Assembly: GCA_040220235.1 (NCBI GenBank)
Contig: JAVJTO010000043.1
From: Coleofasciculus sp. B1-GNL1-01
GTDB lineage: Bacteria > Cyanobacteriota > Cyanobacteriia > Cyanobacteriales > Coleofasciculaceae
Length of the DNA stretch: 20,994 bases
Strand: one strand, 5' to 3'
Under the pieces are notes generated by a model, which worked only from the letters and a program-made list of their open reading frames with translations, was not told the origin of the DNA and did no database searches. The translations under genes were made by a program, and so were the position numbers. Shown here in pieces: positions 4,401-6,785 of the stretch; position 1 is the first letter of the stretch; the number at the start of each line of letters is the position of its first letter.

Positions 4401-6785
4401 CATGTAGAAACACCAACCCGTTCCGGTGCACAAGCAGATGAGCCAGGAGTCGTCGCTCAACAAACAACGCCAGGTGGACATACCCTCAAAGCCTTAGACG
4501 ATGGGAATGTTGTCCTTTGCTCGGACTGCGAACTGATTGAGGTTCGCTATCAGACGCTCTTTGACAATAAAGACAACTATGATGCTAAATTACAAGGCGA
4601 TTTAGATCTATTGGAAGCTGATCTCACAGAAATTAGACAGCTTCAGACGCGCAAGCAGACCCATCTAGATCTTAGTGACACTGAGGTACAACAACTCGAT
4701 TTAGAAATTAAGCAAAAGCTAGCACGGGTTAAGGACGATCTCAATGACTTAGAAACCCAGCGATACAACGAGCTGAATAAAATTGAGAAAGAGCAACTGA
4801 CTACTCAAGAAGAGCAAGAGTTAGTCGCCATTCAACAGCAACGTATCCAATCGCTAGATACTGAAGCAAATCTTAATCTGACGCCGGAACAAATTAATCA
4901 CTTGGCTGGAAAATCGCCTGGGCAACCTCTCACTAAGGAACAACTCCAAAAACTGATGAGTCATGCTCAGCTCGATTGGAAGCAGGTCAAAGCCAACTAC
5001 CTCAAGTATCCCAACTTAATGAAGCAAGTTGTGGACTACCGCACCAGCGAGGTACAAACAATAATTAATAAAATCAAGCAAGATTTAATTGAGGTAGAAG
5101 CTGTATTTCAGGATAAGTCTCGCATCAGCCAAATTGCTGCAGGCAGTACAGATCTCACCTCTGACTATGATATCGTGTTCTATAGTCCGAATAAAATTAA
5201 GGCAATTGAAGCGGTAGAACGGTTCAATGAAGAATTTAGAGAAAAGTTTGGCAGAGAATCCGGCTTTGTCTTCGATACTAATGTCTACACTCCCGGATTC
5301 TTACCCGATGCCGCTTATACGAAAGAAGCCGCGATCGTCGGCAAATTAAATCAGTTACAGGATGCCTGGAACAAAAAAATCAACAAAGAGGCAAAACTAG
5401 AAGAAATCGAAAAATCGCTTAAGTCTTTAGACGAGTCAGAATTATCCGGGCGCGGCGCGGCGGATATGGAAACAAACCGAACAGAACGACAAACGAAAAA
5501 AGAGCAACTTGAAGATGAGATAGCAGAGTTAGTTGAGGAAATTACCACCCTGAAACAAGAAACAAGATCATTGTGTAGAGAAGCTGGTAAAAAGCCGGGT
5601 TCGCTCAACACACCAAAGCAAGTTAGTGATAAATTAGACCAAATGACCGCGAAGCTGGATCAACAATATACGTTTGAAGCCCAGCGAAATGCACCAGCGG
5701 ATCTAGAAACTGAAGCCAAGCTTGTTGCCGATCAAGATGTCATGGCTTTGACGCAGCAACGGCGGAATATGACGGATGAAGAATGGAAAGGATTTCAAAA
5801 AGATACACTTAATGGTTTGGACAGTGATCCGGAGGTTCAAGCCCAAACAACCGCTCGTTTCAAAGCGGCTGAGCAGGTTTACACTCAAGCCAGAAATGAT
5901 CTAGATGCTGAAATTATCTTTCAAAATAAGGCGAAAAAACCTAATCATTCAGATCCAGCCCAAAGAAAAGTTTATCCTGAAGAGAACGTTGAAGCCATTA
6001 AGCTCCAGAACCCAAATGCAGAAATGGAAGCGAGTAATATTCTCTATGTCAAACGACTAGCAGAAGTTAAACGTATTTTGGCAGAACTTGAACCACTGAG
6101 AGAAAAAAGGCTAACCAAACAATTGAATAAGACAGAGAAAGCACGGCTCAATGAATTAACGATTGCGTGGAATAAGAAGCAAAGTGAGGCACTAATTTTT
6201 GCTAACGAAATTTACTATACCAGTGGTGCGGCTCAGCATGTGGTGGGTAATCAGCAGATGTTTTTAGGTCAAAAACTGACCCCTGAGGAGTACTTAAATG
6301 CCTTCAACGAACAAATCAGTTATGCACTCCAACACATTACACCGGAAGAAGGCTTGGGTGATGCTTTATGGACAAGTGGGAAATATACTGACCGGGCTGC
6401 CCGTGCGATTGATCAGTTAACCAAACTTGAGGGACTTCTCAAGGGTTCTCCAATTCCTCTTGATCAAAAACTTCAAGATAAGGTTAAAAAACTGGGGGAA
6501 ATGGCAGAAACAATGGTAGATCTTAAGAAAGACAGAGGAAAGTATAAAAATAAAAATTTGTCTCCTGAACAGAAAGCAAAAGAAGCTCTAGAAATTGCTG
6601 AAAAATATCAAGGTGAATATAGATTTCAACTGGATAGCATCAATGGATTGCGCCAAGAACTGATTACCTTAAGCTTTCAAGTCAATCAGCAAGTCCGCAA
6701 ACAAGGCTTAAGTTACAAAGGACAAAACTCCTTTAATCCAGTAACTAGCGGGCAATCAAACGCTGTAACTTCTGCTCATCCTTGA
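1482..6785 (+). CDS. Large annexin-repeat-containing, polymorphic-toxin-like multidomain protein (1767 aa)
   Basis: Purine-rich RBS upstream (AGAGAGGGAGAAGGGG). P/Q/S-rich N-terminus ending VVQRQ; 7 GxGTDE...(D/E)LS repeats; hydrophobic Gly/Ala-rich segment; Pro-rich linker; GHTLKALDDGNVVLCSDC motif; helical C-terminal region with GSTDLTSDYDI and FDTNVY. The ORF is solid; the toxin role is inferred. Confidence 0.8.
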   Translation: MSEYMHSQPKGSSQSNSTPVPNPLQPNRFNVPPPASPQPQEPVDIQAQREKADHLKSNLLEIPVSTSDAPPPPNQSQTGLGNTTQRRLKPLVNPLNRLNSQPGNPSTSEPTAEESVVQRQPEDGGQFPPGFDPHEKAQALHDAFDGWGTDERKVLDILWAGNRELTQAIEAAYNQRYHPPLEQALHDELSGDDLQKALQLLGHGKLTLRDKIREAVKGWGTDEDKIFNALDRASEAELNELWNDPELVTWLRNELSGEDLSLVNAYLEGNGVLAAKLRQAIAGWGTDEAAIWRAIESATPQEKQFILSQPKLLNDLKADLSESDWIRCDRTLRGTLTNVDRIEMAIAGWGTDEAGLKAALSGLTAQEFSQLPETIDQFLGAELSGSDLVEAQEILHQQRLKYDPEYQQAYLNQQGEALGEDAIADAGNSVLIAGDGQSQSAVGQLKAACAGLGTDEKQIWQVLNSLSESERQFIRERNPQGVLDVLRSDLSEADYTRAMELLSGGAGSTVAAIKQAVEGLGTDERLLYDAIDRILNEGVAADILADQNLLQQIRKDISAKQYDIFYDALRIGHFTPLMRLQWATAMAGTDEELVFELCREYGQQWYSQGQIKPAIAAILQRELDTRDYWQALDLIRGEPQTEAERLARAKELLERERGGISTGIMDALSSSGENADDAWREYQATYNNALADGELTEAEQQLLRRDEEFSKRMTAEYRDAKATVAQWATTIAVAIVGIAATLLTAGAAGPFVMALGGKVAVAAEAMVLAAALKVGLNKAIQGEGYDVTSTQALVDAVSASVEVGLTMVGGHLATQFMQGMGKTALAQSVAPGVQKVFGQAGTRILNAGLEGSIDATIGGIGEGIIQGMAQDETWAGGVEGFFKNMGTSVGVNALMSGVGGGMAGAGFKSIGEVFGPRLRSRAPETPPANSDAPPSNLPDSPERTTPTSTGDSVDGEIKPPDSQPEIESPSSTHHVETPTRSGAQADEPGVVAQQTTPGGHTLKALDDGNVVLCSDCELIEVRYQTLFDNKDNYDAKLQGDLDLLEADLTEIRQLQTRKQTHLDLSDTEVQQLDLEIKQKLARVKDDLNDLETQRYNELNKIEKEQLTTQEEQELVAIQQQRIQSLDTEANLNLTPEQINHLAGKSPGQPLTKEQLQKLMSHAQLDWKQVKANYLKYPNLMKQVVDYRTSEVQTIINKIKQDLIEVEAVFQDKSRISQIAAGSTDLTSDYDIVFYSPNKIKAIEAVERFNEEFREKFGRESGFVFDTNVYTPGFLPDAAYTKEAAIVGKLNQLQDAWNKKINKEAKLEEIEKSLKSLDESELSGRGAADMETNRTERQTKKEQLEDEIAELVEEITTLKQETRSLCREAGKKPGSLNTPKQVSDKLDQMTAKLDQQYTFEAQRNAPADLETEAKLVADQDVMALTQQRRNMTDEEWKGFQKDTLNGLDSDPEVQAQTTARFKAAEQVYTQARNDLDAEIIFQNKAKKPNHSDPAQRKVYPEENVEAIKLQNPNAEMEASNILYVKRLAEVKRILAELEPLREKRLTKQLNKTEKARLNELTIAWNKKQSEALIFANEIYYTSGAAQHVVGNQQMFLGQKLTPEEYLNAFNEQISYALQHITPEEGLGDALWTSGKYTDRAARAIDQLTKLEGLLKGSPIPLDQKLQDKVKKLGEMAETMVDLKKDRGKYKNKNLSPEQKAKEALEIAEKYQGEYRFQLDSINGLRQELITLSFQVNQQVRKQGLSYKGQNSFNPVTSGQSNAVTSAHP
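1878..3393 (+). repeat. Seven annexin-like protein repeats within the large CDS
   Basis: GWGTDE x4, GLGTDE x2 and MAGTDE, each followed by ELSG/DLSE/DISA/ELDT. Repeat 1 has the canonical annexin GxGT-38 residues-E spacing; repeat 2 has a shorter 32-residue spacer. Confidence 0.88.

Follow-up and report, generated by a model that had tools for sequence, protein, structure and literature searches.

A putative short-loop Pol-beta nucleotidyltransferase toxin domain on an annexin-repeat effector of Coleofasciculus

We analysed a 20,994-nt stretch of DNA (the window) from the cyanobacterium Coleofasciculus sp. B1-GNL1-01 (contig JAVJTO010000043.1, assembly GCA_040220235.1). The last third of its effector gene, an open reading frame (ORF) of 1767 aa in the present assembly (1482..6785, plus strand), encodes a member of an undescribed and large domain family of probable nucleoside monophosphate (NMP)-transferase toxins, as judged from sequence comparisons. 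By analogy with superfamily chemistry the domain very probably catalyses a reaction, and it very probably acts as a toxin. The complete picture, to which we give an even chance, is that of an active, metal-dependent Pol-beta nucleotidyltransferase with the two-lobed design of GlnD, GlnE and aminoglycoside nucleotidyltransferases (ANTs), deployed as a toxin against which a WD40 protein, or an AAR2-like protein in sister clades, would protect the producer.

Conserved motifs of the domain

An earlier note, made from the window's letters, had proposed a Pol-beta-type domain with a compact active-site loop at 5000..6420. Its location was right and its extent too narrow: the whole domain covers residues ~1161–1745 (~585 residues). 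All the motifs it named lie in frame at their positions in ORF 1482-6785, and conservation across 156 homologous domains shows that they reflect more than chance. The aligned domains (160 were found, and 4 two-copy proteins were excluded) are the top-scoring matches of a profile that itself contains the motifs. R1187, G1221, S1227, D1228, D1230, Y1635 and R1638 are identical in 153/153 covering rows, D1265, N1267 and Y1269 in 154/154, and Q1592 in 155/155; S1222 (152/153), E1610 (154/155) and K1634 (153/154) are near-invariant. The GS, the DxD and the Asp of FDTN, whose invariance had been offered for checking by alignment, are thus kept.

The nucleotidyltransferase lobe (residues ~1161-1269; 4962..5288; like all features of the gene, on the plus strand) carries W1166, R1187, G1221-S1222, S1227-D1228-Y-D1230, N1249, G1261 and D1265-T-N1267-V-Y1269. 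Within it, the short catalytic-type motif GS-x5-D-x-D occupies 5142..5171, with the GS (G1221-S1222) at 5142 and D1228 and D1230 up to 5171. Five residues separate GS from the first Asp in 153/153 covering rows, bearing out the proposed compact loop across the homologues. The canonical G[G/S]-x9-13-DhD spacing is therefore absent, and because of this spacing we file the domain as a variant that belongs to no named family. GS-x4-SDxD alone occurs 6 times among the genome's 8,038 ORFs; together with DxNxY it occurs once, in the effector gene.

FDTNVY (5271..5288), with the invariant D1265, N1267 and Y1269, would supply a D or N in the third metal-ligand position. In a weak GlnE alignment (9.7% global), as in the strand boundaries of a structural model, N1267 falls at the canonical third-carboxylate position, so that this invariant Asn, and not the equally invariant Asp, may hold it.

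The coiled-coil insertion that follows (148 aa, two long helices; 5289..5732) exists as the note had it and is optional and lineage-specific: the segment is 148 residues long here versus a family median of 39, and is shorter than 60 residues in 113/154. Next come a middle helical region (5733..6176) with QD..L..R..M...W and SN.LY and a weak resemblance to YqeY, and a FANE.Y..G...HVV..Q linker with a C-terminal four-helix bundle (NEQ, KY..R; 6177..6716) of the HEPN or nucleotidyltransferase substrate-binding type. FANEIYY lies at 6198-6218, FNEQ at 6303-6314 and GKYTDR at 6378-6395; the FANEI motif is present as claimed, although its I is atypical, the residue being A in 126/155.

A divergent sub-family (L150:2696-8753 and L151:5820-12986) has GSKGFGSDRD, LDANFY and AKYLGR; it retains GS-x4-SDxD, DxNxY and KYxxR and keeps the invariant residues. 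The L150 member is a DUF4157 fusion adjoining Pvc16-like and ATPase genes.

Fold and relation to known systems

The fold is predicted to combine a Pol-beta nucleotidyltransferase lobe with a HEPN-like bundle, the combination known from GlnD/GlnE and aminoglycoside adenylyltransferases. Each structure or profile match is weak, yet they concur: four partly independent comparisons lead to one superfamily, and reversed controls do not. In fold searches with a 590-residue model of the window's own domain the coiled coil dominated the matches, so the model used is that of a compact homologue. Weak structure and profile matches that agree support the earlier Pol-beta assignment as a prediction; Foldseek with the homologue model was non-significant. 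A first Atlas search gave leads only, all under 0.9; in a further one GlnD/GlnE came top among the structural matches listed. HHalign gave 32-42% for the N-lobe and 0.2-0.5% for the C-lobe against GlnD/GlnE, and 19.5%, over the SDxD strand only, against 8 minimal nucleotidyltransferases of the same genome. The two solved structures that matched the whole domain are both small-molecule adenylyltransferases (201-208 residues aligned, 10-11% identity, root-mean-square deviation 5.7). In the homologue model the DxD is predicted to open strand 104-109, and in the HHalign alignment to GlnD the GS loop appears as a 5-residue deletion.

No match to GlnD_UR_UTase (PF08335) or NTP_transf_2 was found in Pfam at E <= 0.1, and a search of 151 genomes of the phylum gave no GlnD/GlnE bundles. 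The fold-search matches listed did not include DrrA, MenT/AbiEii or edema-factor cyclases, which does not exclude them. We rejected identity as a HEPN RNase, as R[NDH]-x3-5-H occurs in just 3/150 C-lobes.

With GlnD/GlnE the domain shares the succession of long helix, strand, G-G/S, SDxD strand, helix and third strand, then a helical bundle. It differs in a loop 5 residues shorter, in D-x-N-x-Y versus the R-x-D-x-R of GlnE, in a ~150-residue helical region (plus the optional coiled coil) between the lobes, and in being fused to secretion carriers, whereas GlnD/GlnE are fused to ACT/HD domains. AAD(9), ANT(3,9) and ANT(4')/KNTase have the same two-lobed arrangement, and their bundle was also matched separately, but they are resistance enzymes of ~250 aa without secretion context. 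MntA/HepT likewise pairs a minimal nucleotidyltransferase lobe with a HEPN-like bundle; here both lobes belong to one protein, the RNase motif is missing from the bundle, the loop is GS-x5-DxD rather than the GS-x10-DxD of MntA (PMC7641770), and the toxin, not the antitoxin, is presumed to be the transferase. The Legionella AMPylase DrrA/SidM is a GlnE-like nucleotidyltransferase and an injected effector (PMC3710099); compared by description only, it differs in its G-x11-DxD, the spacing of known adenylyltransferase AMPylases (PMC7641770), and in its GEF and P4M domains and Rab1 target (PMC12894286).

Family size and distribution

A search with an 8-row profile returned 1,622 representatives of 50% identity clusters at E <= 0.001, 489 of them at 1e-30; the best 150 were looked at individually. 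Word-based searches turned up 11 long relatives and 3 short ones and matched 5/401 genomes of the phylum; a motif-derived DNA pattern retrieved 114 stretches from GTDB genomes, and a family member is encoded in 105/113 loci. Record titles name cyanobacteria, alpha- and betaproteobacteria, Streptomyces, Planctomycetota, Chloroflexota, Acidobacteriota, Myxococcota and Opitutia. The spread is patchy (12/52 genomes of the window's taxonomic family have a member). Among loci with a name, those nearest to the window come from Coleofasciculus, and the genes flanking the effector look cyanobacterial. A single-protein query found no relative in viral contigs. The domain is C-terminal in 131/160 proteins, and compact natural members have ~470 aa. 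Tandem paralogues also occur, as do giant alpha- and deltaproteobacterial proteins with two copies of the domain (L050, three genes; L087, two genes; L033, L058, L069 and L079). The family tree was built from C-lobe slices with one row left out; its L026 and L149o1 rows come from shorter fragments.

No family for the domain emerged from Pfam, NCBIfam, PHROGs or PDB sequences (the last queried with a single sequence and with two profiles), probably because the short-loop, Asn-containing active site escapes existing profiles. The searched literature, which left most subscription papers outside, held no account of the family. The string 'Nucleotidyl' does not occur in the available text of either survey of toxins of extracellular contractile injection systems (eCISs; PMC8213781, PMC11297309), whose supplementary predicted-toxin tables may list members unnamed. 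Ntox6 (PF15544) was considered and rejected: the domain has no profile match to it, and the genome's only Ntox6 match lies on contig C4, so that the family described from Microcoleus (PMC3482391) is a different gene in the present genome.

Effector architecture and delivery

Upstream of the domain, the effector begins with a polar, proline-rich leader (1482..1871) that also occurs on other large proteins of the genome, including DUF4157 proteins, and that, from its sequence, is a probable eCIS loading signal. Annexin-like repeats follow (1887..3400, end approximate; Pfam Annexin E 2.8e-24), with seven GxGTDE-type motifs counted at residues 146-586. A hydrophobic segment in a Kyte-Doolittle scan (residues 722-777; 3645..3812) is a possible membrane-crossing region. 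Over the annexin and hydrophobic region at window 3000-3980, 3/4 sequencing runs differ from the assembly at many positions and by short indels, and the fourth mostly agrees (best-supported differences only); these differences are strain-level variation.

In PVC-type and eCIS polymorphic toxins an annexin accessory domain likewise precedes a C-terminal enzymatic toxin, in toxin-immunity cassettes (Zhang et al. 2012, PMC3482391). That account differs in naming, as far as its available text goes, RelA/SpoT-like domains as the sole nucleotidyltransferase toxin and in making no mention of WD40. According to published eCIS toxin surveys, DUF4157 serves to carry toxins (PMC8213781) and polar leaders act as signals for loading (PMC11297309). 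The effector has no DUF4157, and the window has neither DUF4157 nor eCIS genes; elsewhere the genome encodes eCIS parts, with 13 DUF4157 matches in all and, on a different contig, a baseplate-spike-tube cluster. The G144 copy of the domain sits behind DUF4157 within an eCIS operon, its gene having gp25, baseplate J, tail, Pvc16 and ATPase genes on its flanks. DUF4157 is present in 15/150 homologues and some eCIS marker in 25/150. We consider eCIS delivery of the window's effector likely.

The family is not confined to eCISs, since baseplate J was matched in 3/10 other carrier genomes. A Rhizobacter member (L018:1846-5018) has type VI secretion system tssA and both sheath genes directly downstream, in a scan of 67/118 listed neighbour ORFs. 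A member with a low-complexity N-terminus from a distant lineage of the phylum (L009:8102-10279) lies, by eye, between TPR-like and flagellar hook-like genes in a genome without a baseplate J match, which hints at another export route.

A second putative toxin domain forms the tip of the effector gene. Relative to its relatives the window lacks 146 nt at 6777..6778, with a change of frame, which severs this second, terminal domain (6778..7332, plus strand, listed as ORF 6850-7332) and leaves the nucleotidyltransferase domain intact. Contigs from 4/4 sequencing runs, among them the run marked as a possible source, carry ~145 extra bases at 6777/6778, and the gap is likely an assembly error or a rare allele. 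Contigs from two RNA-library runs were flat and spanned intergenic DNA too, and were not counted as expression. The main gene reads on in frame into the tip in P0003, L025, L145 and the same-genus genome G420, whose 2002-aa version of the effector is 98.6% identical across 1770 columns. The tip has no family match in Pfam or PHROGs; searches found a single longer homologue of it, the sister protein. With its motifs KEH, HE..E and AHW..H it may recall MuF-type toxin tips. The tips of close relatives vary, as in polymorphic toxins, where related carriers bear different C-terminal domains: some have the window's type, others an adenosine deaminase, an HExxH domain or a further kind, and some have no tip.

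Immediately upstream of the cassette, at window 239-1156, lies a gene for a PD-(D/E)XK (Rpn-type) nuclease with DUF4351; on the other side of the cassette is a 984-aa gene that by eye is polymerase I-like. The order in G420 is identical. Farther away, a 192-aa ORF (window 18409-18987) has weak DUF3467 and DUF5678 matches, both below cut-off, and is possibly two small genes fused.

Candidate immunity genes

Downstream of the effector on the plus strand lie genes for a 191-aa protein (7400..7975), a single-propeller WD40 protein (8041..8946), a pentapeptide-repeat protein (8969..9766) and a double WD40 protein (9794..11713; present in the near-identical L025 and L145, and not in L013, L026 or L146). 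The first downstream gene tracks the tip, being the 191-aa gene here and one for a 237-aa pentapeptide protein behind deaminase tips; because this slot changes when the tip changes, the 191-aa protein is the candidate immunity protein for the tip. The ~300-aa WD40 gene and the pentapeptide gene stay constant while the first slot varies, and where the nucleotidyltransferase domain is terminal the WD40 gene comes directly next (L037, L064, L084). Gene order thus tilts us modestly towards the WD40 protein as the immunity protein for the nucleotidyltransferase domain, with the pentapeptide-repeat protein, because it too is constant in the cassette, as an alternative immunity or accessory candidate.

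In L064 the WD40 gene occurs as six tandem ORFs, and in L084 copies of it alternate with orphan C-lobe cassettes, three in number. L084, L037 and L149 have orphan C-terminal cassettes, each with a downstream gene that recurs, and the window has none; their outer C-bundle varies and their catalytic motifs are kept. Arrays of immunity genes, if that is what these are, would place the target in cyanobacteria themselves.

Other clades have an AAR2-like neighbour, with Pfam matches above cut-off, and in L151 it occupies the slot held by WD40 in L146. WD40 lies downstream in 6/19 cyanobacterial loci and AAR2 in 3/19, with neither in 47 other loci. Before this count 6 duplicates and 7 loci that encode no family member were removed; one genome contributes two of the six loci with WD40. 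As background, 56 WD40 ORFs occur among the genome's 8,038, and AAR2_1st in 1/401 genomes of the phylum. Cyanobacterial AAR2-like genes lie at L051:5084-5923, L066:8138-8962, L017:1837-2736 (second copy 871-1803), L149:1567-2466, L151:4271-5170 and L155:10443-11270; they adjoin the toxin family in five loci, and both AAR2 Pfam domains exceed cut-off in L051, L066 and L017.

Three observations weigh against immunity by these neighbours: the WD40 groups are mutually no closer than unrelated WD40s, toxin/WD40 pairing within L084 is not concordant, and an AAR2-like gene found blind is an orphan without a toxin partner. Members in DUF4157 arrays have no WD40 or AAR2-like neighbour, and a missing adjacent immunity gene is common for eCIS toxins (PMC8213781). 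We set aside a correlation of toxin and WD40 identity (rho 0.84) as support because it reflects three clades of kin. Complex prediction for the domain with the WD40 protein scored 0.01 against a mark of 0.32, which is evidence neither way. No description of WD40 or AAR2 as toxin immunity was found in the searched literature, most subscription papers lying outside the search.

Two other genes accompany these cassettes. A ~480-aa gene starting MTTTSTST, with no Pfam match, ends the toxin cassette in L146 (12392-13861), L151 (1556-3019), L013 and L026, with WD40 or AAR2 in the preceding slot. In the window, 11860-12747 encodes a 295-aa protein with no family match; it may accompany annexin carriers, because a paralogue (E 3.9e-08) on contig C59 lies just behind a DUF4157 and annexin-like gene.

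Proposed mechanism and alternatives

In the proposed mechanism the leader would load the effector in trans into the genome's eCIS, and the annexin-repeat carrier would bear two warheads in a row, the domain being one of them. GS would grip the phosphates of a nucleoside triphosphate (NTP), D1228 and D1230, with D1265 and/or N1267, would bind two Mg ions, and the conserved basic and polar residues R1187, Q1592, E1610, K1634, Y1635 and R1638 would shut the site from the helical lobe. After injection, NMP from NTP would end up on a hydroxyl group of some essential target, a protein side chain being the likeliest acceptor, while the downstream WD40 protein, or the AAR2-like protein in sister clades, protects the producer. 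We rank a protein acceptor first because known effectors and regulators of this architecture modify proteins, and by this analogy it takes about half of our confidence.

The same toxin might instead transfer NMP onto the 3' ends of tRNA or other RNA and block translation, like MenT toxins or CutA. The resemblance to YqeY would be a pointer to RNA, but it covers 69-71 residues of helices and lies within background, and the layout of a nucleotidyltransferase with a C-terminal four-helix bundle fits GlnD and ANT enzymes. The absence of MenT/AbiEii among the 50 matches listed also counts against an RNA acceptor, though it does not exclude one, and we think it unlikely.

An enzyme that acts on small molecules, making or draining a nucleotide such as an alarmone, a dinucleotide or an NMP-ylated cofactor or metabolite, with the short loop and D-x-N reflecting altered chemistry, seems to us similarly improbable. 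Both whole-domain solved matches are small-molecule adenylyltransferases, RelA/SpoT-like Pol-beta derivatives are known as toxin domains (PMC3482391), and a generic substrate would fit a multi-phylum family mostly without adjacent immunity genes. However, the domain matched neither cyclase nor RelA/SpoT families in Pfam; the orphan cassettes, in varying the outer C-bundle and keeping the catalytic motifs, fit immunity escape for any substrate and so lend this alternative no support.

A regulatory or self-protective nucleotidyltransferase, which like MntA acting on HepT would NMP-ylate a partner or the second tip of its own protein, would suit the position of the domain before another putative toxin domain in the window's clade, the finding that most non-cyanobacterial members stand alone with no recurring downstream gene, and homologue P0134, which starts with a hydrophobic, signal-peptide-like stretch. 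Yet C-terminal placement predominates, the domain is the only recognisable cargo behind DUF4157 in the eCIS operon of G144, and it has orphan cassettes of its own, which together make a non-toxin role very improbable. Least credible of all is that the resemblance is superficial, the protein being helical with another fold or another metal-dependent chemistry, given that the four partly independent comparisons and their reversed controls argue otherwise and that one UniRef member is already named 'Nucleotidyltransferase', probably automatically.

Implications

To our knowledge, the Pol-beta-type weapons known so far are few: DrrA, RelA/SpoT-like toxins and MenT/AbiEii toxins. The toxin family proposed here marks a sizeable blank in toxin catalogues, with 1,622 clusters lacking a model in four profile libraries and one sequence library. 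Its short-loop, Asn-containing site, if true, would broaden the catalytic signature of the Pol-beta superfamily, and, given compact members and clear catalytic residues, the activity and substrate of the family lend themselves to direct tests. Aar2 is a spliceosome assembly factor. A bolder generalization, which we offer tentatively and consider doubtful, is that phylum-spanning, injected NMP-transferase toxins with a remodelled site (a 5-residue loop and D-x-N for the third carboxylate) are checked by WD40 propellers or full-length bacterial Aar2 homologues in the same cassette slot. If that is true, bacterial AAR2-like proteins would gain an immunity function, and an origin of Aar2 in conflict systems would be indicated. 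Should the neighbouring WD40 and AAR2-like proteins confer immunity, bacterial toxin immunity would gain two folds that are known chiefly from eukaryotes.

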